Shown here piece by piece: positions 28,912-60,194 of a stretch of DNA of 64,000 nucleotides (its first letter is position 1; each line of letters opens with the position of its first letter). Position numbers and translations under genes: made by a program. Source of the DNA: a virus; the IMG/VR virus record IMGVR_UViG_3300046723_000260, positions 1 to 64,000 of that record. One strand, 5' to 3'. The notes under the pieces were generated by a model, which saw only the letters and a list, made by a program, of their open reading frames with translations, did not search any database and was not told the origin of the DNA.

Positions 28912-29383
28912 CAATCCGCGGACCCACCCGCCGGCCCAGGTCGCGCTCCTCGCCGAGCTGATCAAGCGGTACGGCCCCGACCAGGACATCGTCGTCGACG
29001 AGGACGGCGTGATCCTCAAGGGCCACGGGCGGCTCCTCGCCGCGACGCTCGCCGGGCTGCGCGAGTTCCCGGTCACGCGCCGGACCGGCCTGTCGGAGGC
29101 CGACAAGACCGCGATGCGGATCCAGGACAACCAGGTCGCCCTGCTCTCGGGCTGGGACCGCGACCTCCTGCGCGGCCAGATCGGCGCGCTGCGGGCGGAC
29201 GGCTTCGACGTGAAGCTGCTCGGCTTCGGCGACACCCAGCTCGTGCAGTTCGAGACGCTGCCGGGGCCGCCCGGCGAGTTCCCGGCGTTCGGGGAGGACA
29301 TCCCGACGGCGTTCTGCTGCCCGAAGTGCGGGTACAAGTGGTCGGGCTCCGCCGCGCCGGGCAAGGCGACGGACGACGAATGA
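28769..29383 (+). CDS. ParB/Srx N-terminal domain protein with C-terminal CPKCG (start may be 28865)
   Basis: NPRTH...Q, IVVDE.GVIL.GHGRL.AA and R..DN motifs. Confidence 0.85.
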   Translation: MTEKQAAGSIPGRKRRNGRGRAKKRAGEAPPRMERVSLPLSKIYPWPDNPRTHPPAQVALLAELIKRYGPDQDIVVDEDGVILKGHGRLLAATLAGLREFPVTRRTGLSEADKTAMRIQDNQVALLSGWDRDLLRGQIGALRADGFDVKLLGFGDTQLVQFETLPGPPGEFPAFGEDIPTAFCCPKCGYKWSGSAAPGKATDDE

Positions 29384-39676: not shown

Positions 39677-39944
39677 GTTCGGGGTCAAAGCCGCCGTCGC
39701 CGCGGAGCGCGAGCGGTGCGCCAAGATCGCCGAGGCCCGCGAGGACGACCCGTTCAAACTCTTCGGCGAGGTCGCGACGCTGATCAGGTCGGGCAACCCC
39801 ATGACGACGGTCAAGCCGGTGCCCCTGCTCTGCGTGATCGGCTGGCATAGCTGGACGCGCGGCCGCGAGCCGATCAAGCTGGGCGGCCCGGTCTATCGCT
39901 GCCGCCATTGCGCGGCGACGAAGGGGCGCTACGAGGCCGGCTGA
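39663..39944 (+). CDS. Hypothetical with AERERCAKIAE motif and C-x-x-G-x-H...CxxC
   Basis: Coupled to TerL. Confidence 0.55.
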   Translation: MADDKFGVKAAVAAERERCAKIAEAREDDPFKLFGEVATLIRSGNPMTTVKPVPLLCVIGWHSWTRGREPIKLGGPVYRCRHCAATKGRYEAG

Positions 39945-41602
39945 TGGACTGGAAGCACCCAGACTACGCCGCGATCTTCGCCGAGCGGATGGCCAACCTG
40001 CACCGCATCCGCGAGAACCCCGAGGTCAGCGTCCCGGTGCTCAAGGAGAAGTACCGCGACAACATCGCGGACTTCATCGCCGACTGGGGCGTGACGTTCG
40101 ACCCGAGAAACCCGGAGCGCGACCTCCCCGCCGTCGTGCCGTTCGTGCTGTTCCCGAAGCAGCGCGAGTGGGTCGAGTGGCTGATCCGGCACTGGCACGG
40201 CCAGACGCCCGGCCTGGTCGAGAAGTCGCGCGACGTCGGCGCGACGTGGCTCGCGGCGTGCACGGCCTGCTCGCTCTGCATCTTCAACGAGGGGCTCGCG
40301 ATCGGCTTCGGCTCGCGCAAGGAGGAGTACGTCGACCGCCTGGGCACCTTGAAGCCGATCCTGCCGAAGGCGCGGATGTTCATGGAGCACCTCCCCGTCG
40401 AGTTTCGCGGCGGCTGGCAGTCGTGGCGGGACGCGCCGTTCATGCGGATCAACTTCCCCTCGACCGGCTCGCTGATCATGGGCGAGGCCGGCGACCAGAT
40501 CGGCCGCGGCGACCGCGCCTCGATCTACTTCGTCGACGAGAGCGCCCACCTCGAGCGGCCCGACCTCGTCGAGATGTCGCTGTCGCAGACGACCAACTGC
40601 CGGATCGACATGAGCTCGGTGAACGGGATGAACAACCCGTTCGCGAGGAAGCGCCACGAGGGCAAGGTCGACGTCTTCGTGTTCGACTGGCGCGACGACC
40701 CGCGGAAGGATCAGGCGTGGTACGACGCGCTCTCGAAGGGCGAGGACGAGGGCGGCCGCGGGCTCGACCCGGTCACGATCGCCCAGGAGGTCGACCGCGA
40801 CTACTCGGCCTCGGTCTCCGGCATCGTGATCCCCGGCGAGTGGGTGCGCGCGGCGATCGGCGCCCGCGAGCGGCTCGGCCTGCCGAAGGGCGGGCGCAAG
40901 CTGCTGGCGCTCGACGTCGCCGACGAGGGCGTCGACCAGAACGCGGCGGTCGGCTGCACCGGCATCGAGATCGACTTCGCCGAGCAGTGGTCGGGCAAGG
41001 GCGGCGACATCTTCGGCACGGTCGCCAAGGCGTTCGCGATCTGCGACGAGCACGGCTACCCGGGGCTGCGCTACGACGCCGACGGCCTCGGGGCGGGCGT
41101 CCGCGGCGACGCGCGGGTGCTGAACGAGCAGCGCCGCAGCGCGCGGGCGCGCGAGCTGCCCGTGGTCGGCTTCCGCGGCTCCGAGGCCCCGTTCGATCCG
41201 GACGCCGCGGTCGAGGGCACGCTCGGGCGCGAGGGCGAGAAGGGGCGGACCAACAAGGACTTCTTCGCCAACCGCAAGGCGCAGGCGTGGTGGGAGCTGC
41301 GCCGGCTGTTCCGCAACACGCACCGATGGGTGACGACCGGCAAGGCGTCGAGCCCCGACGAGATCATCTCGATCGACCCGGCGATGCCGCTGCGCTCGAA
41401 GCTGGTCAGCGAGCTGAGCCAGGCGACGATGGCGTTCAACGGCCAGGGCAAGATGGTGATCGACAAGCAGCCCGACGGCATGAAGAGCCCGAACCTCGCC
41501 GACGGCGTCGTGATCCGGAAGGCGCGGATGGAGCGCGGCCCGCTGCGGATCACGCCGGAGATCCTGGCGGCGGTGTCGGGCGGGCGCAGGAGGATGCGGT
41601 GA
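39944..41602 (+). CDS. terL: Terminase large subunit
   Basis: Walker A EKSRDVGATW, Walker B YFVDESAH, nuclease LDVADEG.D and KSPNLAD. Confidence 0.95.
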   Translation: MDWKHPDYAAIFAERMANLHRIRENPEVSVPVLKEKYRDNIADFIADWGVTFDPRNPERDLPAVVPFVLFPKQREWVEWLIRHWHGQTPGLVEKSRDVGATWLAACTACSLCIFNEGLAIGFGSRKEEYVDRLGTLKPILPKARMFMEHLPVEFRGGWQSWRDAPFMRINFPSTGSLIMGEAGDQIGRGDRASIYFVDESAHLERPDLVEMSLSQTTNCRIDMSSVNGMNNPFARKRHEGKVDVFVFDWRDDPRKDQAWYDALSKGEDEGGRGLDPVTIAQEVDRDYSASVSGIVIPGEWVRAAIGARERLGLPKGGRKLLALDVADEGVDQNAAVGCTGIEIDFAEQWSGKGGDIFGTVAKAFAICDEHGYPGLRYDADGLGAGVRGDARVLNEQRRSARARELPVVGFRGSEAPFDPDAAVEGTLGREGEKGRTNKDFFANRKAQAWWELRRLFRNTHRWVTTGKASSPDEIISIDPAMPLRSKLVSELSQATMAFNGQGKMVIDKQPDGMKSPNLADGVVIRKARMERGPLRITPEILAAVSGGRRRMR

Positions 41603-42112: not shown

Positions 42113-45100
42113 ATGGGATGGGGCGGGGCGCGTCCGGGAGCCGGCCGCAAGAAACCGAAGGCGCCGGCGACGCCGCCGCTCAAGCCCAAGCCGACTCCGG
42201 AGATGCGCGAGGCGGAGCGCCGCTCGGTCGCCGCCATGCACGAGATGATCGAGGCGTCCCGCGCGGCGGCCTCGTCGGCCCGCGAGAAGCAGGCGCACCT
42301 CAACCCGTTCGCCATCCGCCCGGACCTGTTCCCGCCGCCCGCCGTCCCGAAGGCCAAGGGGATGCGGCTCGCGATGGACGACGCGACCAACTGGGCGTCG
42401 AACGCCTGGGCGGCCTCCGGCGCGGTGCTCGGCGCGGCGCAAGAGGGGCTGATGTTCCTCGGCTACCCGTACCTCTCGGAGCTGGCGCAGCGCCCGGAGT
42501 ACCGGACCTTCGCGGAGACCATCGCGACGGAGGCGACCCGGAAGTGGATCAAGCTGAAGGGCTCGAAGGCCGAGGAGGAGGCCGAGGAGAAGGGCGCGAC
42601 CCCGGAGCAGGCGCAGGACGAGCAGGCCGAGGCCGACGACAAGAACGACAAGATCAAGGATCTGGAGGGCTACCTCAACCAGCTCCAGGTCCGCGACCAC
42701 TACGCCAAGATCGCGCTGCACGACGGGCTGTTCGGGCGGAGCCACCTCTACTACGACTTCGGCACCGATCTCGGCGATGACGAGCTCAAGACGCCGATCG
42801 GCAACGGTCGCGACGAGCTGACCAAGGCGAAGGTCACGACGGGATCGCTGAAGCGGCTGAGCGTGATCGAGCCGGTCTGGACCTACCCGACGACCTACAA
42901 CGCGAGCAACCCGCTGGCGCCCGACTGGTACAACCCGCAGGTCTGGTACGTGCTCGGGCGCGAGATCCACGCGAGCCGCATCCCGCGGTTCGTGAGCCGC
43001 GAGGTGCCGGACATCCTCAAGCCGGCGTACTCGTTCGGCGGGCTCTCGCTGACGCAGCTCGCCAAGCCCTACGTCGACATCTGGCTGACGACGCGGGCGA
43101 GCGTCGGGCAACTGATCCACGCGTTCTCGGTCATGGTGCTGATGACCGACCTGGAGAGCATCCTGCAGCCGGGCATCGCGACCTCGCTGCTGGCGCGCGT
43201 CAACCTGTTCAACGCGCTGCGCGACAACCAGGGGACGTTCGTCCTCAACAAGGAGACCGAGGAGTTCAAGAACGTCAGCGCGCCGCTCTCGGGCTTGCAC
43301 GAGCTCCAGGCCCAGGCGCAGGAGCACATGATGAGCGTCGCCCGCATCCCGGCGGTGAAGTTCACCGGGATGCAGCCGCAGGGGCTCAACGCGTCGAGCG
43401 AGGGCGAGATCAGGGCGTTCTACGACACCATCGAGGCGTTCCAGAACGCGTTCTTCCGCCCGAAGCTCAACACGACGCTCGACTTCGCGATGATCTCGCT
43501 GTGGGGCGCGCGCGACGAGGAGATCGTCTACGACTTCGAGCCGCTGTGGGCGCTGAGCGAGAAGGAGAAGGGCGAGCTTCGCAAGGCCGACGCGGAGACC
43601 GACCAGATCCGGATCGACACCGGCGTCGTTAGCTCGGAGGAGGTCCGCGCCAAGGTCGCGGCCGATCCGGACTCCGGCTTCGACAACCTCGACCCCAACG
43701 ACGTGCCCGACCTCCTGGAGGAGGAGGCGCAGGGCCTGCAGCCCGAAGGCGGGCGGCCGCAGCCGATCGCGCAGGGCGACCCGACCGGCGAAGTCAGCGA
43801 GGGAGGCGGGGCTAACGACGCCGTGGTCCCTTTCGGCGGCGGCGCTGACGAGGCGGGCTTCGAGGAATCGAAGCATCCCCGGGACGACGGCGGCAAGTTC
43901 ACGAGCGGCTCCGGCGGCGGCAAGGGCGTTCCGCACGCGCCGCAGTTCGGCCTCCAGCACGGCAAGTTCACCGCGCCCGGCGGCGGCTCGTCGTCGTCGT
44001 CCTGGTTCACCGGGTTCGGCGCGAAGAAGACCAACGTCGGGGAGCCGATCGACGTCTCGAAGATGAAGAAGGTCGGCGCCCAGATGGGCTCGAACCCGGG
44101 CGGCGTGTTCGAGGGCGAGGGCGGCGAGAAGTTCTACGTCAAGCGGGGCAAGTCGAAGGCCCACGTCCGCAACGAGATGGTCGCCGCGGCGCTCTACGAC
44201 CTGGCCGGCACGCCGACGCTGAAGTACCGGCCGGTCGAGGGCGGCGAGCACGTCGCGACCGAGATGGCGAAGCTCGACAAGGACAACGCGGCGAAGCTGT
44301 CGAAGGCCGAGCGGGCCGAGGCGGCGCGCGACTTCGCGGTCCACGCGTGGCTCGCCAACTGGGACGCGGTCGGCACCGGCGGCGACAACCTCGGCACCGT
44401 GCGCGGCGTGCCGACGGCGCTGGACCTCGGCGGCGCGCTGGAGTTCCGGGCGCAGGGCGCTCCGAAGGGCAAGGCGTTCGGCACGAAGGTCGGCGAGCTC
44501 GACACGCTGCGCGACGGCAGCAACCACGACGCGGCGAAGATGTTCGGCGACATGACGCCGGCGCAGATGCGCGAATCGGCGCGGTACGTCGCGGCGATCG
44601 GCGACCAGAAGATCAAGGACGCGGTCGAGAAGAACGGCGGCGACGCGGCGCTGGCCGAGAAGCTGATCAAGCGGCGCGACGACATCGCGGAGCGGATGAA
44701 GACGTTCGGCGAGGACGGCGACCCGGAGAGCCCGGACGGCACGATGGTCGTCCCCGCCGGCGGCAAGATGCCGATCAAGAAGCTGAACGGCGTGGCGTTC
44801 AAGCCGTGGCGGCCGCCGGCCGACTGGGCCGCGGTCGACGGCCAGGCCGAGATCGACGAGCCCGAGTTCTTCGTGACGCCGGGCAAGCGCGCCTCGACCG
44901 GCGTGATCGTGCGCGAGGCCGACGGGCGGGTGTGGCTGATCCAGCCGCGCAACGGCTACGGCGGCTACGAGGGGACGTTCCCGAAGGGCGGGCTCGAGAA
45001 GGGGCTGTCGCTGCAGGCCAACGCGATCAAGGAAACCTGGGAGGAGAGCGGGCTCAAGGTGAAGATCACCGGGTTCGCCGGCGACCACGAGGGCGACGCC

Positions 45101-47197
45101 TCGACGACGCGCTACTACCACGCCGAGCGCGAGGGCGGCGACCCGTCGCAGCACGACGACGAGAGCGAGGGCGTCGTGCTGGTCCCGGAGAGCAAGGCGG
45201 CGGGCTTCCTCAACCGCAAGCGCGACCAGGCGGTGCTGGCGCACGACGAGGCGAACTTCGAGGAGAGCAAGCACCCGCGCGACGCGGAGGGCAAGTTCGC
45301 CACGACCGCGGGAGGCGGCGGCGGGCCGAAGGAGTTCGCGAAGGAGCTGAAGAAGATCGTCGGCAAGCACGGCGAGGGCGGCTCGTTCGAGAGCGCCGAG
45401 AAGAAGGCGGTCGCCGCGCTGAAGAACAACGTCGGCGAGGAAGATCTGGAGGCGGCGCTGTCGCCGGTCGAGGCGCACGAGCTGAAGAAGGCGCACGGCG
45501 GCTCGCTCGCCAAGGCGATGCAGAACCTGGCCGAGGAACACGGCATCGGCGGGGAATCGCTCGCGGAGGAGCCTGATGATGAGGAGGAGGGCTCCCTCTC
45601 CGCGAAGCAGATCGAGGATCTCCCGCTGCTCGGCAAGGCGATGCAGTTCGTCCACGGCGGCGGGGTACCGCTGACGAACGCCGAAGCGACGACTTTGGCG
45701 AGCGAGATGGGAATGGAGATGCAGGACGTGTGGGACATGGTCGAAACGACCCCGCCCGATCTTACGCCATCGCTGGAAACGAAAGCTCCGGCGGCGACCT
45801 CTAGCGGCGGCAAGAAGACCGCGTTCGGCGGCCTGTGGAAGGTCGGCGTCGGTGCGCCGGGATCGGCCGAGGAGTTCGGCCACAACGTCGGGCACGTCCT
45901 CGGGAAGCCGACCAACGCGGGCTCGACCTACCGCACGATGCTCGGCTTCATGATGAAGAACGCCGCGAAGCACGGCATGCCCGAGATGGCCGAGAAGCTG
46001 AAGGACAAGCTCGGCGAGGCGTTCTTCCTGGCCGGCAACAAGGCGGCGCAGCAAGGCGAGGGCGCGGCCGCGGCGAAGGCGTTCAAGAAGGCGGCCGAGT
46101 TGGGATACCTCGGCGGCTCGCCGGCGGCGCCGCTCCTCGCACCCGCCGAGAAGGCGGTCGCGGCGGCGGCGAAGGCTCCGACCCCGAAGGCCGCGGCGAA
46201 GGCGGCGGAGGAGGTCAAGCCGAGCAGCTTCCCGGCCCCGACGGCGCAGGAGCTGGAGAAGGCGAAGAAGTCGGTGCAGCTCCAGTCCGCGTACGTGCCG
46301 GGCTTCAACGAGCTGCAGCAGATGAACGGGGCGATGACCGTGGTCCCGGAGGTGAACAAGCTCGTCAACGAGTTCAACGCCAAGTACGAGGGCAAGACGC
46401 TGACCGACGCCGGCGCGCTGGCGCAGAAGGTCAACGACTTCAAGACGCTCGGGGCGAAGGTCGCGGCGCTGAAGGCTTACGTGCAGCAGAACCAGACCGA
46501 GCTGCAAAAGAAGCAGGCGGCGAAGCAGAAGGAGGCGGCGGCCGAGCAGGCGAAGAAGGCCGCGGCGGAGAAGGAGAAGCTCAAGGCGCAGCACGCCGAG
46601 GTCACGAAGGAGCTCGGCATCACCGAGCCGGCCGAGCTGGAAGCCTTCGACGCGTTCGTCGACCACTTCGGCGGCACGAAGAACGCGCTCGACAAGTTCA
46701 AGTCGTGGACGGCGGAGGCGCAATACGCGGCGGCGAAGAACCCCGGCCACGGCTTCGAGAAGCTCTCCGGCTTCGAGATGGGCTGCATCAAGGCGTACAC
46801 CGGGCCGCAGTCCGGCTGGATCAACACGGCGATCCGCGACGACGCGATGACGCCGGCGCAGTTCATGTTCGAGAAGGTCCTCAACGCCGCGATCGACAAG
46901 CTGCCGAAGCAGACCAAGCCGACGAAGCGCGGACTCTCGCTCGACGCGGCGACGCAGGGGAAGCTCAAGCCCGGCGTGATCTGGACGCACCGCAACTTCG
47001 CGAGCAGCAGCTCGAGCGGATGGGGCGGCAACACCAAGCTGCACATCACGACCAGCGGCAAGGGCGGCGCATACGTCGACCCGATCTCGTCCCACAAGGG
47101 CGAGGACGAGACGCTGTTTAAGAGCAACCTGAAGCTCTATATTGAGAAGGTCGAGAACAAGGGCGGCGTGCTGCAGGTTTATTGCAAAGAGATGTGA
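42113..47197 (+). CDS. Portal protein (DUF1073-type) fused to kinase-like, Nudix and ADP-ribosyltransferase domains
   Basis: Portal F.GYP.L.EL.Q..EYR, IHASR, P.Y.FGGLS and IP.VK..G..P.GLNASSEGE; then GSNPGG..YVK..NE/NWD..DN..D.G kinase-like; Nudix box GGLEKGLSLQANAIKETWEESGL; ART YT..IN..R, KRG, FASSS and EDE. Confidence 0.9.
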   Translation: MGWGGARPGAGRKKPKAPATPPLKPKPTPEMREAERRSVAAMHEMIEASRAAASSAREKQAHLNPFAIRPDLFPPPAVPKAKGMRLAMDDATNWASNAWAASGAVLGAAQEGLMFLGYPYLSELAQRPEYRTFAETIATEATRKWIKLKGSKAEEEAEEKGATPEQAQDEQAEADDKNDKIKDLEGYLNQLQVRDHYAKIALHDGLFGRSHLYYDFGTDLGDDELKTPIGNGRDELTKAKVTTGSLKRLSVIEPVWTYPTTYNASNPLAPDWYNPQVWYVLGREIHASRIPRFVSREVPDILKPAYSFGGLSLTQLAKPYVDIWLTTRASVGQLIHAFSVMVLMTDLESILQPGIATSLLARVNLFNALRDNQGTFVLNKETEEFKNVSAPLSGLHELQAQAQEHMMSVARIPAVKFTGMQPQGLNASSEGEIRAFYDTIEAFQNAFFRPKLNTTLDFAMISLWGARDEEIVYDFEPLWALSEKEKGELRKADAETDQIRIDTGVVSSEEVRAKVAADPDSGFDNLDPNDVPDLLEEEAQGLQPEGGRPQPIAQGDPTGEVSEGGGANDAVVPFGGGADEAGFEESKHPRDDGGKFTSGSGGGKGVPHAPQFGLQHGKFTAPGGGSSSSSWFTGFGAKKTNVGEPIDVSKMKKVGAQMGSNPGGVFEGEGGEKFYVKRGKSKAHVRNEMVAAALYDLAGTPTLKYRPVEGGEHVATEMAKLDKDNAAKLSKAERAEAARDFAVHAWLANWDAVGTGGDNLGTVRGVPTALDLGGALEFRAQGAPKGKAFGTKVGELDTLRDGSNHDAAKMFGDMTPAQMRESARYVAAIGDQKIKDAVEKNGGDAALAEKLIKRRDDIAERMKTFGEDGDPESPDGTMVVPAGGKMPIKKLNGVAFKPWRPPADWAAVDGQAEIDEPEFFVTPGKRASTGVIVREADGRVWLIQPRNGYGGYEGTFPKGGLEKGLSLQANAIKETWEESGLKVKITGFAGDHEGDASTTRYYHAEREGGDPSQHDDESEGVVLVPESKAAGFLNRKRDQAVLAHDEANFEESKHPRDAEGKFATTAGGGGGPKEFAKELKKIVGKHGEGGSFESAEKKAVAALKNNVGEEDLEAALSPVEAHELKKAHGGSLAKAMQNLAEEHGIGGESLAEEPDDEEEGSLSAKQIEDLPLLGKAMQFVHGGGVPLTNAEATTLASEMGMEMQDVWDMVETTPPDLTPSLETKAPAATSSGGKKTAFGGLWKVGVGAPGSAEEFGHNVGHVLGKPTNAGSTYRTMLGFMMKNAAKHGMPEMAEKLKDKLGEAFFLAGNKAAQQGEGAAAAKAFKKAAELGYLGGSPAAPLLAPAEKAVAAAAKAPTPKAAAKAAEEVKPSSFPAPTAQELEKAKKSVQLQSAYVPGFNELQQMNGAMTVVPEVNKLVNEFNAKYEGKTLTDAGALAQKVNDFKTLGAKVAALKAYVQQNQTELQKKQAAKQKEAAAEQAKKAAAEKEKLKAQHAEVTKELGITEPAELEAFDAFVDHFGGTKNALDKFKSWTAEAQYAAAKNPGHGFEKLSGFEMGCIKAYTGPQSGWINTAIRDDAMTPAQFMFEKVLNAAIDKLPKQTKPTKRGLSLDAATQGKLKPGVIWTHRNFASSSSSGWGGNTKLHITTSGKGGAYVDPISSHKGEDETLFKSNLKLYIEKVENKGGVLQVYCKEM

Positions 47198-47199
47198 CG

Positions 47200-47523
47200 A
47201 TGGTCGAGCGAATCGACGCCACGCAGATGCTCCTGACGCCGGAGGAGGCCGCGCAGTTCGACGCGCAGGCCGCGGCGCAGGCGAGCGGATCCGCGAGCAA
47301 GGCCGAGGCGCGCTACCAGAACGAGCCGCGCGGCGAGGAGAGGTGCGACAAGTGCTCGATGTTCGTCGCGGGCTTCCCCACGGACCCCGGCGGCTTCTGC
47401 ACGAAGGTCACGTCGTTCCGCGGCGGCCCGCTCGGCACGATCTTCGCGGACGGCTGGTGCAGGTTCTTCGAGCCGGACCCGCTCGCGGAGGAGCAGCCCG
47501 AGGACTTCGCGGACTTGAAATGA
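47200..47523 (+). CDS. HiPIP-like (high-potential Fe-S) protein lacking a Tat signal
   Basis: SKAEARYQ.EP.G..RCDKCSMF...C.KV...G.I..DGWC.FF. Confidence 0.7.
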   Translation: MVERIDATQMLLTPEEAAQFDAQAAAQASGSASKAEARYQNEPRGEERCDKCSMFVAGFPTDPGGFCTKVTSFRGGPLGTIFADGWCRFFEPDPLAEEQPEDFADLK

Positions 47524-48305
47524 TCGCCAAGTCGGCCGCGCGCGCGATTCGCCCGAACGCCGGGATCGAGGCGGCGTACCGCAAGCGGCTCCGCCTCCTG
47601 CTGGAGGAGATGCGGCGCTCGGTCGAGCACTGGATCGAGGCCGCCTACCGGGACAACCCGCCGATCGCGATGGACTCGCCGGCCTCCGACCTCGACCGCG
47701 AGATGCGAAGGCTGTCGCGGCAATGGCGGCGGCGGTTCAACGAGGCTGCGCCGGAGATCGCGGCGCTGTTCGCGAGGCGCGCGCGAGGAGGAGCCGACGC
47801 GACGCTGCTGCGGATGCTCAAGCAGGCCGGCTTCACGGTCCCGTTCCGGATGACCAAGGGCATGCGCGACGTGGTCGACGCGACGGTCGCGGAGAACGTC
47901 TCGCTGATCCGCTCGATCCCGGAGAAGTACCTCGGCGACGTCCAGACGTCGGTGATGCAGAGCGTCAAGGCCGGCCGCGACCTCGCGACGCTGTCGAAGG
48001 ACCTTCGCAAGAACTACGGCGTGAGCTACCGGCGCGCGGCGCTGATCGCCCGCGACCAGAACAACAAGGCCACGAGCGCGCTGATGCGGGTCCGCCAGGT
48101 CGACCTCGGGCTCGAGAAGGGCGTGTGGCTGCACTCGCACGCCGGCAAGGAGCCGCGGCCGACCCACCTCGCCAACCACGGCAAGAAGTTCGACCTCAAG
48201 GAGGGCTGGTTCGACCCCGACCCGCGCGTCCGCAAGCGCATCCTGCCCGGCGAGCTGATCAACTGCCGCTGCGTCTGGAAGCCCGTCGTCCCGGGGCTGA
48301 CGTGA
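47520..48305 (+). CDS. MuF/SPP1 gp7 minor head protein (short form)
   Basis: ENV.LI.SIP, RA.LIARDQ..K, W.HS...PRP.H and PGELINCRC motifs. Confidence 0.9.
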   Translation: MIAKSAARAIRPNAGIEAAYRKRLRLLLEEMRRSVEHWIEAAYRDNPPIAMDSPASDLDREMRRLSRQWRRRFNEAAPEIAALFARRARGGADATLLRMLKQAGFTVPFRMTKGMRDVVDATVAENVSLIRSIPEKYLGDVQTSVMQSVKAGRDLATLSKDLRKNYGVSYRRAALIARDQNNKATSALMRVRQVDLGLEKGVWLHSHAGKEPRPTHLANHGKKFDLKEGWFDPDPRVRKRILPGELINCRCVWKPVVPGLT

Positions 48306-49399: not shown

Positions 49400-49981
49400 A
49401 TGTCGACCTGCGACCACTGCGCGCTCTGGCTGGTGCGCCGAGAGACCGGCTACGACGGCGGCGAGATCGTCGTCACCTGGTTCGACCCCGACGGCCGCGG
49501 CAAGTGCCTGGGACCGCTCAAGGGCGTCCTGACCGAGCCGGAGTTCGGCTGCAACTCGTTCCAGGATGGCGGTCCGCTGATCGAGACCTCCCGCAAGGGC
49601 GGCCACCCGTGGCAGCACGCGACGCCGATCCCGTGCCCCGACTGCCGCAAGCCCGGCTGCGGCTTCGTCGCGCCCGGCGAATGCACGGCGATCGGCTGCC
49701 CCGGGACCGACAAGTGCCTCGGGCTCGGCAGCGCCAACGACGGGGCCGACGGCCGCTGCGTCGGCACCGGGACCGTGCTGCGCTACGACGACGGCTTCGT
49801 CGGCGACAACCGCACGAAGAAGCACCCGAAGGAATCGGAGCGGGTCGAGCCGAGGTCGTGCCAGCGGTGCGCCAGGCCGGTCGAGACGACGTGGCTGCAC
49901 TGCCCCCACTGCGGGCAGAACCTGCACGAGGAGGGGAAGACCGAGGTCCTCAACGACGTCCTGACCGGAGGCATCACGTGA
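49400..49981 (+). CDS. Cys-rich zinc-ribbon protein
   Basis: Multiple CxxC pairs, C-terminal CQRC...CPHCG. Confidence 0.6.
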   Translation: MSTCDHCALWLVRRETGYDGGEIVVTWFDPDGRGKCLGPLKGVLTEPEFGCNSFQDGGPLIETSRKGGHPWQHATPIPCPDCRKPGCGFVAPGECTAIGCPGTDKCLGLGSANDGADGRCVGTGTVLRYDDGFVGDNRTKKHPKESERVEPRSCQRCARPVETTWLHCPHCGQNLHEEGKTEVLNDVLTGGIT

Positions 49982-52320
49982 GAAGCGAGCACTTCTGGAG
50001 CTGGTTCGACGGCCACGCGGTGCCGCGGCTCAAGGGCGGCAACCCGCAGATGAACCGGGTCAACACGTTCCGGGCGATGTTCGAGCACCTCGACGGCTTC
50101 GAGGAGCCGCTGATCGTCGAGACCGGCTGCATCGAGGAGCCGGACAACTGGGTCGGCAACGGCTGCTCGACCATCATGTTCGACAAGTACGCGGACTTCG
50201 CCGGCGGCTTCGTCAGGTCGGTCGACATCGACCGGGGGAAGGCTTCGCGGGCCAACGCGCTGACCGGCGAGCGCACGACCGTCGCCTGCGCCGACAGCGT
50301 CGCGTTCTTGAAGGCGCTGGGCGCGCAGCCGGAAATTCCGGCGCTGGTCTACCTCGACGCGTCGCACCTCAACTGGCAGGTCGAGACCGAGGCGCAGGTC
50401 CACCACTTCCTGGAGCTGAAGGCGATCTGGCCGCGGCTGGCGCCCGACACGATGGTCGCGGTCGACGACAGCCCGGCGATCCTCGACGAGAACGGCCGGC
50501 TGATCATCTGCGGCAAGGGCGGGCTCGTCGCCCGGCACGCCGGCGAGGTCGGCGCGGCGCTGGCGTTCACCGAGTACCAGAGCGGCTGGACCGGCTTCCC
50601 CGGCTCGCCGGAGCGCACCGACGAGGCGGCCGAGGAGATCCTCGGGCGCGCGCGGTGGCTCCTGGAGAACGGCGAGTGGGCGAAGGCGCACCCGCTCTAC
50701 CGCTCGGTCCTGGTCCGCACCCCGCCGCCCTGGAACGGCGTCCAGCGCGTCATGCACGGCGAGGCTTGCGCGTTCTTCGCGCGGCTCGCGCTCCAGCACG
50801 AGCGGCCCGGCGCCGCGTTCGACTGGTTCAAGCGGGCGCTGGAGGCCGACCCGATGGCGGCCGACTACCGCGTCGAGCTGGTCAACAAGGCGATGCTGCC
50901 GCTCGGCATGACCGGCGCGGCGAAGTCGGAGGCCGAGCGGGCGACCAAGATCGAGCCGTCGAACCAGTACGCCTGGCGGACGCTCGGCCTGGTCGAGGGA
51001 AGGCTGAACAACGCGGCGAAGAGCCTCGCCGCGCACGAGGAGCAGGCGCGGCTGACCGGGCGGTCGACCGTGGCGCTGCTCGACGTGGTCGCGACGCTCG
51101 TCGACGTCGAGCGGTACGAGGAGGCGGCGACGCTGCTCAACGAGGTCGAGGCGCGCGACCCGAACGACGCGATGATGGGCGACGTCCGGCAGTGCCAGGC
51201 GATGATCCTGGCGCGGCACGGCGACCACGAGGCGGCGATCCAGCTCTTCGAGGACGCGATCGAGATCGGCTGCTGCGACCCGACGCTCTGCCACTTCCAC
51301 CTCTCGCTGTCGCTGCACTCGATCGGGCGCTACCGCGAGGGCTGGGCGCACCACTCGATGCGGGCGAAGAACGCGAGCGACCCGGCGCTGTTCGTGCCGA
51401 TGCGGCGGTTCGACCGGCCGCTCTTCACGCTCGACGCGCCGCCGTCGACGGTCCACGTCCACGCCGAGGCGGGAGCGGGCGACAACATCGCGATGCTGCG
51501 CTACCTGCCGCTGCTCCGGGAGATGGGCCACAAGGTCCGCTACGAGTGCCGCGACGAGCTGCTCGAGCTGGCGCGCTTCAGCCTGCCCGGCGTCGAGGTC
51601 GTGCCGATGGCGAAGGACTACCCCGGCAGCCTGGGGCTGCGGGACTTCGACCTGCACTGCCCGGTCGGCGAGCTGCCGCACGCGTTCGGGACCGAGGTCG
51701 ACACGGTGCCGTGGAGCGGTCCGTACCTCTCGGCCGACCCGGGGTGGGCCGAGCGGTTCGCCGAGCACAAGGGCAAGATCGGCCTCGCGTGGTCGTCCGG
51801 CATCCGCCCGGAGGGCATCTGGCTCAAGCGGTACGGCGAGCTGAAGTCGCTGAAGTTCAGGGACGTCGGTCGGCTGCTTTGGCAGGGCGACGGGTGGACC
51901 AAGCGGGCGTGGGAGAGGATGGTGTCGCTCCAGGTCGGATCGGGCCGCGAGGAGAACGACAAGCTGCTCCTCGCCGACGTGCTGAGCGAGAGCCCGACGT
52001 GGGCGGAGACCGCGGGGCTGCTCGCGAACCTCGACCTCGTCATCACGCCGGACACCGGGCTCGCGCACCTCGCCGGCGCGATGGGCAAGCGCACGATCCT
52101 GCTGATGCACTGCCACAACAGCGGCTGGCACTTCATGTGCGAGCGGCCCGGCGCGTTTTGGAACGAGCGCAGTCCGTGGTATCCGAGCGTCACCGTCGTC
52201 CGCCAGCGCGAATCGGGGCGGTGGGACGACGTCGTCGATCGCGCGCTCGGGATGGTCGAGCTGTGGGAGCGGACGCATGACCACGCAGAGGTGGCGGAGC
52301 CGGCGGGACCGGGAGCCTGA
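49978..52320 (+). CDS. Class I SAM methyltransferase + TPR + GT9-like glycosyltransferase fusion
   Basis: IVETG, SVDID, DSV.FL, YLD, VDD, GKG (MTase); TPR helices; E.G.GD.I...RY.P, GLAWS and LDLVITPDT..AHLAGAMGK, SPWYPS (GT9-like). Confidence 0.85.
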   Translation: MRSEHFWSWFDGHAVPRLKGGNPQMNRVNTFRAMFEHLDGFEEPLIVETGCIEEPDNWVGNGCSTIMFDKYADFAGGFVRSVDIDRGKASRANALTGERTTVACADSVAFLKALGAQPEIPALVYLDASHLNWQVETEAQVHHFLELKAIWPRLAPDTMVAVDDSPAILDENGRLIICGKGGLVARHAGEVGAALAFTEYQSGWTGFPGSPERTDEAAEEILGRARWLLENGEWAKAHPLYRSVLVRTPPPWNGVQRVMHGEACAFFARLALQHERPGAAFDWFKRALEADPMAADYRVELVNKAMLPLGMTGAAKSEAERATKIEPSNQYAWRTLGLVEGRLNNAAKSLAAHEEQARLTGRSTVALLDVVATLVDVERYEEAATLLNEVEARDPNDAMMGDVRQCQAMILARHGDHEAAIQLFEDAIEIGCCDPTLCHFHLSLSLHSIGRYREGWAHHSMRAKNASDPALFVPMRRFDRPLFTLDAPPSTVHVHAEAGAGDNIAMLRYLPLLREMGHKVRYECRDELLELARFSLPGVEVVPMAKDYPGSLGLRDFDLHCPVGELPHAFGTEVDTVPWSGPYLSADPGWAERFAEHKGKIGLAWSSGIRPEGIWLKRYGELKSLKFRDVGRLLWQGDGWTKRAWERMVSLQVGSGREENDKLLLADVLSESPTWAETAGLLANLDLVITPDTGLAHLAGAMGKRTILLMHCHNSGWHFMCERPGAFWNERSPWYPSVTVVRQRESGRWDDVVDRALGMVELWERTHDHAEVAEPAGPGA

Positions 52321-52423: not shown

Positions 52424-53092
52424 ATGCCCCTGGTCGACTCCAACCAAGCCTCGCTCTGGGACGGCAGCAGCGACCTCTCGCTCTATCGCGCCTGGGTCAA
52501 CAACCTGCCGGTCGGCTACCAGCGGATGGCCGACGGCAGCAGCCCGTTCATCGGCAACGACGCGAAGGCGCTGATCGCGGCGCTGGAGAGCCGCGGCCTG
52601 CTCAAGACGCACCGGCTCGTGCTGATCGGCGCGGGCTTCGGCTTCGTCCACGACGAGTTCCTCGCGGCGGGTTATGGGCCGACCGCCGACGGCACGGCGA
52701 ACGGCAAGCTGCTGAGCGTCGACACCTCGACCTACATCCAGGCCAACCTCAATGGCAACGCGCGCGTCCCGATCCTGAACGCCGACGTGAACGCGGCGAC
52801 CGGGCGCCGGACGGTGCGCCAGCAGTTCGGCAGCAACAACGCCGCGGTCGACTGGATCGTCACCGAGGACGTGCTCGGCACGCTGATCGGCGCCGGGCCG
52901 ACGCCGGGCGGCAACAACGAGATCGTGCCGCTCTGCCAGAACCTCCGCACATTCACCGCCAACGTCGCGCACTGGATCAGCCCGCTGACGGCGAGCAGCG
53001 ACCCGCGCCTCAACTGGAAGGCGATGAGCGAGTGGAAAGCCTGGGTCGCGCCTGACCTGGTGATCCAGCGCGGCACCTCGGCGGTGCTGTAA
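52424..53092 (+). CDS. Methyltransferase-fold protein
   Basis: VLIGAGFGF, VD.S.Y, ADV and DWIVTEDVL resemble class I SAM motifs. Confidence 0.45.
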   Translation: MPLVDSNQASLWDGSSDLSLYRAWVNNLPVGYQRMADGSSPFIGNDAKALIAALESRGLLKTHRLVLIGAGFGFVHDEFLAAGYGPTADGTANGKLLSVDTSTYIQANLNGNARVPILNADVNAATGRRTVRQQFGSNNAAVDWIVTEDVLGTLIGAGPTPGGNNEIVPLCQNLRTFTANVAHWISPLTASSDPRLNWKAMSEWKAWVAPDLVIQRGTSAVL

Positions 53093-56000
53093 TGGCATTG
53101 CCGACGACGATCACTGGAATCAGTACGGCGGCCGCTTGTGCGGGTCCATTTATTTCGAGCGGCGGGAATGTCTATTTCTTCGGCGTTGATGGAACGACCG
53201 CCACAACATTGCAGGCTTACAAAGCAACTGACCCGACGAGTTCGTTTTCCTCGATAGCGACGTGCGACGGATCGACCATCGTCACGACCAGCATCAACGT
53301 AATTAGTGCTTTTCAAGTCGGGGACACGATCCACATTTGCTTCGGGGGTCAGGCTTCTTCGACAACGGCCGGTTTTGGATATTGTGCTTTCGACATGTCA
53401 TCCGACGCCTTCTCTGTTTCCACGCCGGAAGGCCCCGCTCACAGCAGTTTGGACACAAGAACGTCAGGCGGAACTCTACAATTCGGAATATCCTGCATCG
53501 TCCGCTCCGGCGGCGAGGTTGTCGCCTTCTTCAGCGGTGCTCGCGTTGCCTCGATGGGCAACAGTTGGGCGCAGACTTACTACTCCCGGCGCACCGGAGT
53601 AAACACATGGTCTGCGAACACGCAGGTCAGTGCAGGCGGCGCAATAGACTTTACATTGCCGGAAGCGCTGTTGGGAGCATCTGATGAATTGCACTTTTGC
53701 TATGCGGCGAGCAGTGGAAATATATTCAGACAAAGGGCGCTAACGTCTGGAAATTCGTTGCAAACTGAGGGAAGCGTCTCCTTGGCAGTAACCGAAACCC
53801 AAGGAAATTCCTACGACCAGTCTGGAACAAGAAAGGTCATCGTCGCTGCTGGGACAAGCACGACCTCGAATGTCTATTTTGACGGTGGGAACACACCGAC
53901 GCTCAATACCTCCAACGGCGGCGATGGCACGTTCTCTATTCCTGAGAGGGTTTTTCATGATGGAACGACCGCATATTTGGTGGTGCGCCGGACGACCACG
54001 ACCGGTCTTGCCATCATAAGCTCCACAGACGGCGGGGCAACTTGGTCTGCGATCACGAACATATTTAGCGCCAGCATCACTCAGGCAGACTCCAACCTGT
54101 CCATCGATGGCAACGTCTTCACTCGCGGTTCCTCTGTCGTCATTCCCTATGTCGTCAATGACGGCGGCACGTTGAAGTACAACGAGTATTTGATCCGGTC
54201 GCTCGCCAGCCCGAGCGGCTGGAACGATCAATGGCCGCGCGCGCTTCCGATCGTCGCGAGAAACCGCCAGCGAGCCTCCGCGTTCCTTCGCGGCGACGAC
54301 GGCATCTACAACGTGATGGCGCCGCCTCCCGCCGCGCCGCCGTTCGGGTACGATCCGCCGCCGGTCCATCACCGCAAGCCGTACAACCGCGCGGCCGCGG
54401 GCATGCGCGGCAGCGACGGCACCGACGCGCCGAAGATCAACTTCTTCGACCACGGATTCCCGGTGCAGCCGCCGCAGCCTCCCCGCCGGCCGCCGACTCG
54501 ATCCGCCGCCGCGATCATGCCGAGCGTCAACGTCGACGCGGTCTTCCAGAGCTGGCGCAACGCCGGGTGGGAAGTGCAAGCGCCGCAACCTCCGCATCGC
54601 CGCCCGGAGCGCGGCGCCGCGATCTTGGAAGGAGACGACGGCACCGAAGCCCCGTTCGTTCCGCCATTCTCGCCGCCGCCGCCGCTCGACATGCCGACCC
54701 AGCTCCGCGCGAGGCCGATCAGGCTCGTCGACAAGGCGCAGCAAGACCCGCAGGCCGCGTTCCAGAACTTCGTCGGCTTCGGCTTCGAGGTCGCGCCGCC
54801 CGTGGCGAAGGGCAAGCGCACGGTGACCGTCGACGACGCGTCGCTCGATCCGCAGAACGCGTTCCAGTTCTTCCGCGACGCCGGGTTCGTCGCGACCTTC
54901 CCGCAGCCGCCGCACCCGAGGCCTGAAAGGTTCGGCGCGATCGCCCGAGGCAGCGACGGCACCGAGGGGCGCTTCCAATTCTGGATCAACGACGGCTGGG
55001 AGATCGCCCCGCACCAGCCCGGCCATCCGCGGCGCGAGCGGGCCGGCGCGATCCTCGAAGGCGACGACGGGAACGAGGGCGTCTTCGCGCAGTTCGTCCC
55101 GCTCGGCTGGCCGGTCCAAGATCCGCAGCCCCGGCATCCGAGGCCGGAGCGCGCCGCCGCCGCGATGACCGGCGACGACGGGATCCAGGCGACGTTCACG
55201 CTGACCGCGGCTCAGCCCGTCCTCTTCGAGCCGACGTTGCCGACGGTCAAGGCGCGGCCGAGGATCACGGCGGACGACGCGTCGCTCGATCCGCAGCAGC
55301 CCTACGCCGCGTTCTTCCCGCTCGGCTTCCAGGTCCAGGACTGGCAACCGCCGCATCCCCGTCCCGAGCGCGCCGCGGCGACGTTGGAGGGCGACGACGG
55401 AATCGAGGGGACGTTCGTCCTGACCGCGGCGCAGCCGACGCTGTTCGAGCCGGCGCTGCCGACGCTCCGCGCCCGCCCGAGGATCACCGTCGACGACGCC
55501 TCGGTCGACCCGCAGCAGCCGTTCGCGCAGTTCTTCGCGATGGGGTTCGAGCCGACGCAGTCGCAGCCGCTCCACCCGCGCCGCGAGAAGGCCGGGGCCG
55601 CGATGCGCGGCGACGACGGCTCGGCCGGCGTCTATCAGTTCTGGCGCAACTCCGGCTGGGAGGTTCAGCCTCCGCAGCCGCCCCATCCCCGGCCCGAGCG
55701 TTCGGGCGCGCTCGCCCGCGGCGAGGACGGCACCGAGGGCGTCCAGATCAACTTCGTCGCGCACGGCTGGCCGACTCAACACGTCCAGCCGCCTCACCCG
55801 CGCCCGGAGCGCGCTGCCGCGGTCATGCTCGGCGACGACGGCGACCAGGCGGTCTACCAGCCGACCTTCACGCCGGCGTGGTGGGAGGTCCAGACCCCGA
55901 TGCTGCGGCGCCGCCCGCCGCTGACGGTGGACGACGCCTCGCTCGACCCTCTCAACGCGTTCCAGGCGTTCGCCGCGATGGGATTCGAGCCGGCGCTGCC

Positions 56001-57770: not shown

Positions 57771-57801
57771 CCGGCGAGGGAATCGGTGCTATCCATCGGC
57801 G

Positions 57802-57984
57802 ATGGGCCGGCTGAAATTCCTTCGGCGGTGGTTGCGGAGCGGGGTTTGCTACTCGCTCGTCGCCGCGCCGTGGCTCGCCGCCCCGATCGAGCGGTTCGCG
57901 CCCGGCGTCTATCCGTTCGGCCGCGAGCCCGTCCCGACCGACGAGGATCGCAAGCGCAGGCAGCGCGGCGCGGCGCGAACATGA
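57802..57984 (+). CDS. Small hypothetical
   Basis: ATGA coupling to the protease gene. Confidence 0.3.
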   Translation: MGRLKFLRRWLRSGVCYSLVAAPWLAAPIERFAPGVYPFGREPVPTDEDRKRRQRGAART

Positions 57985-60194
57985 TCACGAACCCGAGCTC
58001 CGGACCTCCCGCCGGCCTCCGCAAGCTGGTCGACGACATGCGCCAGCGCGGCATCGCCGACGACATGACGCCGGAGGACTGGGCGGCGATGCGGCGCGGC
58101 TTCAGCCAGTGGATGAGCGAGGAGGAGCGCGAGGGGGAGGAGCACGGCGAGGACGCCGAGTTCAAGGAATCGGATCACCCGCGCGACAACACCGGAAAGT
58201 TCGGATCGGGCGGCGGCGGCAAGACGTCGAGCAAGGATCCTGCCAGGGAGGGCCGGATCGCCGCCGGCTTCAAGGGCGGCACGCCCGGCGAGCAGGGCGA
58301 GATCGCGGCGAAGACCGACGCGGCGGCGGTCGAGCATTCCAAGAAGGCCGGGCTGGCGATCATCAAGCGGATCAAGCGCGACTCGTTCCTCGGCAAGTAC
58401 GCCAGCTCGGACGACGAGTACGGCAACGACCCGTTCACGGTCAGGAAGGACGGCTCGGTCGAGGTCTCGATGCGCGACGTCGGCCAGTGGGTCAACCCGC
58501 CCGGCAAGGAGCGCGAGGAGGACTACGACTGGAAGGTCCCGACCAAGGAAACCGAGGCCAAGGTCAAGGCGGCGGTCGCGTCGATGGAGAAGGAGCTCGG
58601 CGTCAAGATCAGCGTGAGCGGCGGCGAGAAGAGCTACACGTATTTCCGGATCTCCGCGCCGAAGGCCGGCGATGAGTCGGTGGCGACTGATTCGGCCCTT
58701 CGCCTCGCGCTCGACCGCGAATCGATCCGCGAGAAGTCGAAGGACGGGCACCTCCACGTCGCCCGCACGCCGATCTCGAAGGCGACCGTCAACCCGTACC
58801 GCGGCGCGGAGATTCCGAACTGCGAGGAGCTCGGCCTCGACCCCGAGGAGATCTACTACCTGCTGCGCGATCCGGACGAGCTGGCGAAGGCCGCGGCGAG
58901 CTTCAACGGCAAGCCTTTGCTGCGTAAACACGTGCCCGTCAGCGCCGAGGACCACGCCGCGCACGACACCATCGGCGCGGTGATGAACGACGCCGCGTTC
59001 GAGGATCCGTACCTCAAGGCGAGCCTCTCGGTTTGGCCGCAGGACGACATCGACGACATCGAGTCGGAGGCGAAGAAGGAGCTGTCGAGCGGCTACCACT
59101 ACCGCGCCGAGATGACTCCCGGAAATTTCCGTGGTATGCGCTACGACGGGGTGATGAGGGACATCGTTGGAAACCACGTCGCCCTGGTGAAAGATGGACG
59201 CGCCGGCCCGGACGTCGTGGTCGGTGACAGCATGGAGAGCCTCATGGCCAAGCCGACCCGTTTCGCCGCCCTCACCCTCGGCCTGGTCGCCGCCAACGTC
59301 GCACCGCTGATCGCCAAAGACTCGAAGATCGAGCTGCCGAAAGGCCTGTTCTCTTCGATCACCACCAAGAACTTCCAGACGAAAAGGACCGAGCTGCTCG
59401 GCGGCGTCCGCGCCGCGCTCGACGGCAAGCTCCGCAAGGGCCTCGCGCTCGACGCCAGCATGGAGCAGGTCGGCAAGGTGATGGACAACGTCGCCGGGCT
59501 GTTCGGCGAGAAGGGCGGCGACGAATCGGTCTCCGAGGAGCAGCACAACGCGATGGAGGCCGCGGCCCACGGCGAGAGCAACCTCGGCATCCCGAAGAGC
59601 GTCGGCGAGGAGTTCGAGAAGGCCGACAAGGGCAAGTCGTTCGACGCCGAGCCGTTGAAGAACTTCCTGCGCGAGAAGGGCATGGGCGAGGACGACATCA
59701 AGGCGGCGTTCGACATGCTGCCGAAGCCCGGCACGGACGCGTCCGAGGAGGAGCAGGCCGAGAAGACCGAGGAGGAGAAAAAGGCCGCGGTCAGCGAGGC
59801 CGTCGAGAAGGAGCGCAAAGCTATGGACGAGAAACTCAAGGGCATGGTCACGAAGACCGCGATGGACGAGGCGATCAAGGCCGCCGCGAAGACCACGCGC
59901 GAGACCGAGCGCGGCATCCGCGCCGCCCTGGACTTCGTCCGCCCCTACGTCGGCGAGCTCGCCTCGTCGCTGGCGCTCGACAGCGCCGACGACGTCTACC
60001 GCCACGCCGCGGTGGCGATGAAGATCGACGGCGCGAAGGACATCCACCCGTCGGCGCTGCCGACGCTGATCAAGATGCTGCCGAAGCCCGGCGCGCGCCA
60101 GACCGAGCACACCTCGATCGCGCAGGACGAGGCGACGGTGACCGACTTCGAGAAACGCTTCCCGAACGCCACCCGGATCCAGCCCGGCGCCTGA
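57981..60194 (+). CDS. DUF2213 prohead protease/scaffold with N-terminal cargo extension
   Basis: ISKA.VNPY.G.EIP, L.R.P.EL, ELSSGY and YDG.MRDI.GNHVALV..GRAG.DV.V.D motifs; acidic scaffold C-terminus. Confidence 0.9.
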   Translation: MITNPSSGPPAGLRKLVDDMRQRGIADDMTPEDWAAMRRGFSQWMSEEEREGEEHGEDAEFKESDHPRDNTGKFGSGGGGKTSSKDPAREGRIAAGFKGGTPGEQGEIAAKTDAAAVEHSKKAGLAIIKRIKRDSFLGKYASSDDEYGNDPFTVRKDGSVEVSMRDVGQWVNPPGKEREEDYDWKVPTKETEAKVKAAVASMEKELGVKISVSGGEKSYTYFRISAPKAGDESVATDSALRLALDRESIREKSKDGHLHVARTPISKATVNPYRGAEIPNCEELGLDPEEIYYLLRDPDELAKAAASFNGKPLLRKHVPVSAEDHAAHDTIGAVMNDAAFEDPYLKASLSVWPQDDIDDIESEAKKELSSGYHYRAEMTPGNFRGMRYDGVMRDIVGNHVALVKDGRAGPDVVVGDSMESLMAKPTRFAALTLGLVAANVAPLIAKDSKIELPKGLFSSITTKNFQTKRTELLGGVRAALDGKLRKGLALDASMEQVGKVMDNVAGLFGEKGGDESVSEEQHNAMEAAAHGESNLGIPKSVGEEFEKADKGKSFDAEPLKNFLREKGMGEDDIKAAFDMLPKPGTDASEEEQAEKTEEEKKAAVSEAVEKERKAMDEKLKGMVTKTAMDEAIKAAAKTTRETERGIRAALDFVRPYVGELASSLALDSADDVYRHAAVAMKIDGAKDIHPSALPTLIKMLPKPGARQTEHTSIAQDEATVTDFEKRFPNATRIQPGA

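Follow-up and report, generated by a model that had tools for sequence, protein, structure and literature searches.

The window analysed here, the first 64,000 bases of a 72,242-base virus record (IMG/VR record IMGVR_UViG_3300046723_000260), carries among its head genes a single open reading frame (ORF) in which a phage portal protein continues into a predicted atypical kinase, a Nudix domain and, at its C-terminus, an R-S-ExE ADP-ribosyltransferase (ART; Table 1). We propose that its product is a portal-anchored polyvalent effector, whose enzymatic cargo is released and ejected together with the DNA, and we give this reading a probability of about 60%. Judging from sequence comparisons, the fusion is a conserved and modular trait of a phage lineage, and the three enzymes look active, with catalytic residues that are intact and conserved.

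The fusion might be an artefact of assembly or of a frameshift, an explanation to which we give almost no weight. The GC content at third codon positions (GC3) is 0.88-0.99 in the frame of the ORF for 17/17 intervals of 300 nucleotides (nt) from 42113 to 47212, and it shifts phase only past the stop codon. Since this single-frame signal holds up to the stop, there is no sign of a frameshift or of a join. Of 81 independent homologues, which come from many samples, 73-77 have the same architecture, and an identical protein cluster comprises 4 member sequences. A GGAGG lies 8 nt 5' of the ATG, and portal matches in the complete 72-kb genome are confined to this ORF. As far as sequence can tell, the fusion is confirmed as real. 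A first-pass annotation, made from the letters alone, had placed a portal and three enzyme domains in one frame, and the continuous ORF, its uniform GC3 and the homologues bear this out; neither GC3 phase nor homologue architectures gave any hint of the artefact it had named as a danger. The motifs it had listed are all in place, namely GSNPGG (44087), YVK (44135), NE (44171), NWD (44357), DN (44384) and LDLGG (44420) in the kinase-like segment, the Nudix box further on, and KRG (46925), FASSS (46997) and E-D-E (47102-47110) in the ART. The record ends overlap by exactly 127 nt, which indicates a circularly closed genome, and the output of the search tool gives the record as 100% complete (CheckV estimate) with direct terminal repeats. 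The gene layout is that of contractile-tailed phages, and head genes follow one another in the order terminase, portal fusion, MuF, scaffold-like DUF2213 protein, then minor and major head proteins.

The homologous portal core extends beyond the Pfam domain, to about residue 545. In the PDB, sequence matches of the portal part to the solved portals of two Pseudomonas phages, E217 gp19 (8fvh, E 1.5e-34) and Pa193 gp19 (9b41), reach up to about residue 542. Part of the Pa193 report (PMC11042391) describes the C-terminal part of the modelled chain as the barrel, and the barrel is the capsid-interior end in homologous solved portals. Because these portals end in a barrel at that place, the cargo, which follows residue ~560, would start at the capsid-interior end of the portal. 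That the cargo lies inside the capsid appears to us highly probable.

The first passenger had been announced as HipA/PI-kinase-like. Sequence searches gave little: residues 620-885 matched no kinase model in Pfam (three unrelated families appeared at E 0.026-0.13, far below their cut-offs), and phmmer against the PDB returned 0 matches at E<=10. A profile of the alignment of kinase homologues (A1, 22 members) retrieved only ARTs from the PDB and was set aside, because many short kinase-bearing proteins carry an ART too. An AlphaFold2 model built on 22 sequences (predicted local distance difference test, pLDDT, 89.1; predicted template modelling score, pTM, 0.85) has a bilobal fold with a helical C-lobe. 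Foldseek ranked Helicobacter pylori CtkA first for this model (E 3e-5, TM 0.51), followed by actin-fragmin kinase, PI4KIII-beta and many eukaryotic kinases. With a fold search independent of Foldseek, 50 out of 50 rows were kinase folds, and CtkA was again on top (Z 14.3, 203 aligned residues, root mean square deviation, rmsd, 3.3), ahead of MavQ (13.1), CotH (12.9), PI4KII-alpha (12.1), Fam20 (11.4), HipA (11.2), actin-fragmin kinase and Rio1 (10.1 each). In the model, the glycine loop, K677 and E688 are placed on the strand-loop-strand, strand 3 and helix C, and D751, D758-N759 and D771 at the catalytic-loop and DFG-like positions. These residues are nearly invariant over 238 copies of the domain (K677 238, E688 238, D751 236, D758 232, N759 238, D771 236). 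The structure search therefore sides with the first-pass annotation as to fold, and the prediction supports an atypical kinase fold, nearest to the CtkA/MavQ/CotH/PI4KII/HipA type. Membership in the HipA families by sequence was not borne out, as neither HipA_C (PF07804) nor HipA_2 (PF20613) matched the domain or any member of A1 at E<=1. The sole such match came from a protein of 3416 aa that contains the kinase five times (summed HipA_C 1.7e-18, APH 1.4e-17).

When 1.84 billion cluster representatives (50% identity clusters) were scanned in full with HMMER, the kinase domain had 4047 relatives at E<=0.001 (691 of them at E<=1e-30), almost without exception large multidomain proteins. The domain occurs in 20 out of 50,697 phage records; one is gp117 of the cultured Pseudomonas putida phage Dolphis, where it is joined to an ART, annotated ADP-ribosyltransferase, and located outside a head module. 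Kinase and ART are found together in 24+5 of 99 non-portal proteins. This uncatalogued kinase family, the most constant of the passengers, is among the fresher parts of the finding.

The Nudix box, expected at ~44980-45055, was located within a domain that passes Pfam NUDIX (PF00293; E 4.7e-12, 46.5 bits, cut-off 21.1). Among solved structures, the Ap4A hydrolase 3i7u (E 6.6e-6) and Thermus Ndx1 are nearest. The canonical box reads GX5EX7REUXEEXGU; here the Gly, the E of RE, the EE pair and the GU are kept, Leu replaces the first Glu and Lys replaces the Arg. These replacements characterize the clade, with Leu in 64/70 and Lys in 68/70 boxes (70 boxes were found in 75 domains).

The C-terminal 224 residues, scanned alone, pass the Pfam model ADPrib_exo_Tox (PF03496) by a small margin (25.3 bits, cut-off 23.4), and match the solved toxin Tre1 (6drh/6dre) at E 3e-8, with the R, the S-x-S and the ExE aligned (R1606, S1631-S-S, E1664-D-E1666). 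A model of residues 1241-1694, built from 35 sequences, reached a pLDDT of 88.3. Its ART part found Tre1 first in the fold search (Z 22.1, rmsd 2.2, 181/185 residues, 23% identity), then XopAI (20.0), HopU1 (17.6), ART2.2 (15.6) and VIP2 (13.2); Foldseek agrees, with target-normalised TM values of 0.84-0.87 to 6drh/6dre. Over 139 homologous domains, R1606 is kept in 139, S1631 in 135, E1664 in 128 and E1666 in 138. The domain had been described as VIP2/Alt-like: the R-S-E type stands, and VIP2 as the closest relative gives way to Tre1. The ExE motif is typical of arginine-modifying ARTs, and Tre1 modifies R174 of FtsZ, as related in part of PMC11606950; transfer to arginine may be predicted from the motif here as well. 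A search for the ART as a short stand-alone protein gave one fragment only, and five weak matches of the segment in cultured phages are all labelled 'minor head protein'.

What had been read as an Ala/Lys helical spacer between Nudix and ART does contain helices, and proved to be more than a plain spacer: it falls into a hypervariable stretch, which includes a four-helix module, and a conserved unit linked to the ART. Residues 1081-1360 share 0-38% identity even with relatives whose kinase and Nudix are 70-90% identical. Within them, residues 1252-1329 are confidently predicted to form the four-helix module; a TPR-like nature was considered for it and rejected, as Z scores of only 7-9 are meaningless for helical folds. 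Residues 1063-1375 gave no usable match in the ESM Atlas and a single chance-level match by phmmer in the PDB; a word-indexed search brought 4 partial homologues, all portal fusions. The helical unit of residues 1371-1510 accompanies the ART in 95 of the 115 portal-ART proteins, and in 112 of them the ART ends at most 30 residues from the C-terminus.

We then turned to relatives. A portal-seeded search restricted to proteins of 931-2965 residues yielded 391 portal homologues at E<=1e-10 among 8000 scored candidates, many on contigs of 70-75 kb. Cargo was counted by phmmer, using segments of the protein, in the 81 long portal homologues lying outside the top 150 kinase matches: the kinase was present in 77/81, the ART in 73/81 and the Nudix in 36/81. 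All grades were seen among 26 related IMG/VR loci, from the portal alone, through portal with kinase, with kinase and Nudix, or with ART only, to the full set. Identity of the ART is bimodal, 12 proteins standing at 66-79% and every other at 40% or below, and does not follow the identity of the portal (Spearman -0.04, n=109; for portal and kinase, 0.13, n=124). Breakpoints lie just past the second junction peptide described below and near residue 1481. The bimodal, portal-independent ART identity and these breakpoints indicate that C-termini are polymorphic by cassette exchange, which answers the first-pass suggestion that related portals be compared for such polymorphism. In the same slot, the Pfam family Acb1, a nuclease directed against the cyclic-oligonucleotide-based antiphage signalling system (CBASS), was found in 8 out of 120 listed portal homologues; in relative P0009 its place is after the portal and before the kinase (E 3.5e-33). 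Two related portals (P0051, P0210) carry Pfam topoisomerase I families (PF01028, PF21338) plus a Nudix, and some others (P0008, P0012, P0163, P0227) have Hint/intein domains within the portal domain.

Cultured phages match in the portal part only, with 28% or less of the query covered; 0 of 890 records reach 80%, and all matches among the 50,697 phage records are below 60% identity. The portal-cargo arrangement is the rule in a whole lineage of ~70-75 kb phages that has no close cultured representative. A single relative (L027) was found among 185,579 species genomes, on a 75,865-base contig of a Rhizobium sp. assembly; the contig is of phage-genome size, a hint that the host is an alphaproteobacterium and that the phage was not integrated.

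Exchange of ART cassettes among portals would also be displayed by a polymorphic toxin of the MuF style, in which the ART would serve against competing bacteria or superinfecting hosts and the 107-aa gene following the portal ORF would encode the immunity protein. This is in our view very improbable. The small ORF does begin 2 nt past the ART and shows translational coupling with the gene that follows, Tre1, which comes closest to the ART among solved structures, is a toxin used between bacteria, and small ORFs follow 89% of MuF toxin genes in the data given in part of PMC5576092. However, the 107-aa gene is doubtful as an immunity gene, having no homologue in the 26 related loci, and in locus L013 MuF comes directly after the ART-bearing portal ORF. 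Its product has a four-cysteine pattern and resembles high-potential iron-sulfur proteins (Pfam HIPIP, E 0.005; NCBIfam iron oxidase Iro, E 3.3e-7; both below cut-offs), unlike known ART immunity proteins. No integrase or repressor turned up in a non-exhaustive scan of 74 selected ORF translations outside the portal ORF, some of them overlapping alternative frames. An iron-sulfur-like protein inside a head operon is an oddity in its own right.

Coming back to a portal-anchored effector, the question of how the cargo may be freed leads to the boundaries between modules. There, we found a recurrent peptide of pattern [FW]xE[SG]xHPRxxxG[KQ]F followed by a glycine run. In the form FEESKHPRDxxGKF with its glycine run, it occurs twice in the portal ORF and once more in the genome, in the gene for the DUF2213 protein. 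These three in-frame copies lie in plus-strand ORFs, and each is found where two modules of a head protein meet; the loose pattern also matches once on the minus strand, there without the flanking residues. The DNA of the three copies varies at synonymous positions, and what is conserved is therefore the peptide.

The strict pattern is present in 103 of 150 kinase-bearing proteins. Among 227 kinase(/Nudix) units, a junction lies within 120 residues upstream in 120 and downstream in 87, at median distances of 38 and 13 residues. The peptide terminates the portal core of the cultured Xanthomonas phage PhiXhv-5, and a scan of IMG/VR with one exact back-translation of the junction gave 14 stretches, three of which follow a portal domain and one of which precedes DUF2213. 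Two overlapping loci (L031/L032) of one 30,664-base IMG/VR contig contain one and the same ORF, over 1600 residues long, in which the junction appears six times, and one of its modules passes Pfam PI3_PI4_kinase (29 bits, cut-off 27.1). The junctions of this ORF are 150-270 residues apart, like beads on a string, and one module is weakly ParB-like.

The third copy draws attention to the DUF2213 protein, whose layout is a 130-aa N-terminal module, the junction peptide and a module of residues 100-298. Its DUF2213 part matches Pa193 gp24 (9b40) at E 1.4e-7, which part of the Pa193 report presents as a putative scaffold located inside the capsid at five-fold vertices and found in virions (PMC11042391). 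PHROGs labels the protein 'head maturation protease', as opposed to the PDB label 'scaffolding protein', and the literature yielded nothing on the function of DUF2213. A portal fusion of 2274 residues has, at its residues 1500-1698, a homologue of residues 100-298 (E 4.8e-31), and in 3 of 33 scanned proteins a kinase or a Nudix precedes DUF2213 as an N-terminal fusion. The portal C-terminus and the scaffold N-terminus are interchangeable anchors, both leading into the procapsid. We tentatively suggest, as a possibility less probable than its opposite, that the peptide is the dedicated junction and release signal of a modular capsid-cargo system, placed at every boundary between anchor and cassette, cut by the DUF2213 protein or autocatalytically, and taking the place of a metallopeptidase. 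The recurrence of the peptide, which may explain how passengers are released, is another of the fresher parts of the finding; were it a cleavage signal, it would offer a means to load proteins of choice into phage heads.

The following mechanism can be proposed. The N-terminal ~560 residues would build the dodecameric portal, with the rest hanging from its C-terminal end, and up to 12 copies of a ~118 kDa cargo (~1.4 MDa) would be built into the procapsid. Junction peptides would bound two units, unit A made of the atypical kinase and the Nudix, and unit B made of the variable helical region and the ExE ART. The units would be cut free at or near these peptides during head maturation, exit with the DNA at infection, and be at work ahead of phage gene expression. 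In the host, the ART would attach ADP-ribose to protein arginines, on the pattern of Tre1 and FtsZ, host proteins would likewise be substrates for phosphorylation by the kinase, and the Nudix would hydrolyse ADP-ribose-type or dinucleoside-polyphosphate nucleotides; for all three enzymes, the targets are what we infer. The steps differ in probability: injection into the host has even odds, and cleavage at the junction peptide is less likely than not. In the first-pass annotation the enzymes were expected to act as infection starts, possibly against host defences, in about 12 copies; these proposals would fit the context, because the barrel is at the capsid-interior end, Acb1 uses the same slot, and the modules are shared with the scaffold-like protein.

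Several observations weigh against this mechanism. Peptidase_S78 and S49 were not matched in the complete genome and no classical prohead protease was found (the search for an S77 protease was uninformative, as its control gave no signal). The major capsid gene has no junction peptide, so that a general maturation protease of junction specificity is not indicated. The strict junction pattern is absent from 47 of the 150 kinase-bearing proteins, and junctions flank the kinase unit on both sides in just 56/227. Twelve passengers of 118 kDa would have to unfold to pass the portal and tail channel, the Nudix box has lost the first Glu and the Arg of the signature, and packaging, cleavage and injection of the cargo are steps that we infer.

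The lack of S78 and S49 proteases would suit another possibility, which is that the cargo stays covalently on the portal, is never injected, and acts at the portal vertex or inside the cell that makes the phage, for instance by modifying phage or host proteins in assembly, or by shielding the packaging machinery from defences that sense portal or terminase. An alternative of this kind is raised for ARTs near packaging genes in part of Iyer et al. 2022 (PMC9503650), and the Pa193 portal chain, of 765 residues and modelled from 94 to 528 only, illustrates that virions do contain long unseen portal tails. We nevertheless think such permanent tethering unlikely. The same modules on a scaffold-like DUF2213 protein make sense only for delivery to the inside of the procapsid, an Acb1 nuclease in that slot would have to get to the cytoplasm of a newly infected cell, and the flexible glycine-rich linkers together with a conserved peptide at each boundary suggest separation.

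The enzymes might also form one substrate chain, in which the ART would add ADP-ribose, the Nudix would trim it to phosphoribose, and the kinase-fold domain would carry out related nucleotide chemistry; the phosphoribose remnant would then be out of reach of host ADP-ribosylhydrolases. Nudix enzymes can indeed trim protein-bound ADP-ribose, and kinase folds can also AMPylate or glutamylate. Such a chain is distinctly unlikely, more so than tethering. The pairing of kinase and ART does extend well past portals, to the non-portal proteins mentioned above and Dolphis gp117, one pair of junction peptides encloses both kinase and Nudix, and the Nudix clade has its own box variant. Yet the Nudix is optional, modules assort independently, and units that are cut apart need not meet. 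Release and ejection of separate effectors remains the reading we favour.

Table 1. Positions of the features discussed, counted from the first base of the 64,000-base window; residue numbers are those of the portal-cargo protein
Feature	Position	Strand	Details
Baseplate genes	700-4500		
YqaJ/ERF recombination pair and three DNA methylases	15-31 kb		
Terminase	39908-41602		
Whole portal-cargo ORF	42113..47197	+	1694 aa, 181 kDa, ATG start
Portal domain (Pfam Phage_portal_3)	42470..43609	+	residues 120-499, E 1.4e-75
Junction peptide 1	43859..43900	+	residues 583-596, FEESKHPRDDGGKF, then glycine-rich linker; between portal and kinase
Atypical kinase-like domain (predicted)	44042..44743	+	residues 644-877; G-loop 659-664, K677, E688, D751, D758, N759, D771
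Nudix domain	44885..45199	+	residues 925-1029; box 44987-45055
Junction peptide 2	45257..45298	+	residues 1049-1062, FEESKHPRDAEGKF, then glycine run; between Nudix and variable region
Hypervariable region	45299..46222	+	residues 1063-1370; first 180 aa orphan
Conserved helical unit travelling with the ART	46223..46642	+	residues 1371-1510; 69-residue helix 1433-1501
R-S-ExE ADP-ribosyltransferase domain	46637..47194	+	residues 1509-1694; R1606, S1631, E1664, E1666
107-aa gene between portal ORF and MuF	47200-47523	+	2-nt gap after portal-ART stop; ATGA overlap at 47520
MuF gene	47520-48305		261 aa, separate, without toxin domain
DUF2213/scaffold-like head protein	57786-60194	+	802 aa
Junction peptide 3	58161..58202	+	FKESDHPRDNTGKF and glycine run, past first 130 residues of DUF2213 protein

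Other parts of the window deserve mention. A 1462-aa ORF of the head module (53092-57480, +) has no match in Pfam, PHROG or NCBIfam; its first ~900 nt have a lower GC content and no third-position GC signal, unlike the remainder, and could be a recent N-terminal acquisition or the result of a miscalled start. Also among the head genes, a TPR-repeat protein with weak methyltransferase and heptosyltransferase-like matches is encoded at 50101-52320 (+), within a listed ORF (49504-52320) that by third-position GC is coding in frame only from ~50100. A DNA-modification cluster at 21008-31458 (+), with MT-A70, N6/N4 and C5 methylases, a ParB-like and a QueC-like gene, suggests heavy anti-restriction modification of the phage DNA.

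Among known systems, the closest in concept are the polyvalent proteins of Iyer et al. (2017, 2022), which likewise unite several unrelated conflict enzymes in one head-gene polypeptide of portal-terminase phages. Two of the traits of polyvalent, head-anchored proteins were found here: at least two unrelated effector domains in one ORF, and a head-gene location with portal fusion. In the parts of these papers that bear on the subject, the 2017 study defines polyvalent proteins and reports portal fusions with PBECR, 2H and InPase domains (PMC5512222), and the 2022 study describes Alt/VIP2-family ARTs and NudE-like Nudix domains fused to MuF, Portal or a capsid-processing peptidase, and predicts their injection (PMC9503650). 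The concept of ART and Nudix effectors fused to portal or MuF is already in print. Our literature search brought no paper on a portal-kinase-Nudix-ART protein, an architecture that the supplements of the 2017 and 2022 studies may list.

Three differences from the 2017 description appear. As far as the main text of that paper goes, the ARTs of polyvalent proteins belong to the Tox-ART-HYD2 clade, and genuine polyvalent proteins lack R-S-E ARTs of the Alt/VIP2 type (PMC5512222), whereas the R-S-ExE ART here sits in a multi-enzyme protein. The kinase clade described in the same text is without a C-terminal subdomain and mainly from Verrucomicrobia and Bacteroidetes, in contrast to the domain modelled here with a helical C-lobe. 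Lastly, a zincin-like metallopeptidase (MPTase) is proposed there as processing device; Pfam found none in the portal ORF, in which the junction peptide recurs instead.

The locus may also be set beside single effectors. No phage proteins meet the host earlier than effectors packaged in the head, and to our knowledge almost none of these apart from T4 Alt has been tested; the present locus is a clean and complete example with three apparently active enzymes. T4 Alt is directed to the head by a capsid-targeting sequence. It is the functional model for the cargo, although it is not a portal fusion and the likeness is by description only. In the passages of both Iyer papers that treat it (PMC5512222, PMC9503650), Alt is an R-S-E type ART of the head, a separate protein injected with the DNA. 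MuF polymorphic toxins of temperate phages, described in part of Jamet et al. 2017 (PMC5576092), have in common with it a head protein beside the portal, variable C-terminal toxins, including ARTs, and a small downstream ORF; here, by contrast, the anchor is the portal itself and the downstream 107-aa ORF is not conserved. The best match in both sequence and fold is Tre1, a type VI secretion system (T6SS) ART of Serratia proteamaculans (6DRH/6DRE) with the same R-S-ExE site. Tre1 is carried on a PAAR protein through the T6SS and paired with the immunity protein Tri1, whereas here the carrier is a portal and no immunity gene is conserved. As to the kinase, CtkA, Legionella MavQ, Bacillus CotH, PI4KII-alpha and HipA have the bilobal fold in common with the model, at Z 11-14 over ~200 residues, and the glycine loop, Lys, Glu, Asp/Asn and DFG-like Asp fall on the expected secondary-structure elements; identity to these enzymes is just 8-16%, and no Pfam kinase model matches the phage domain.

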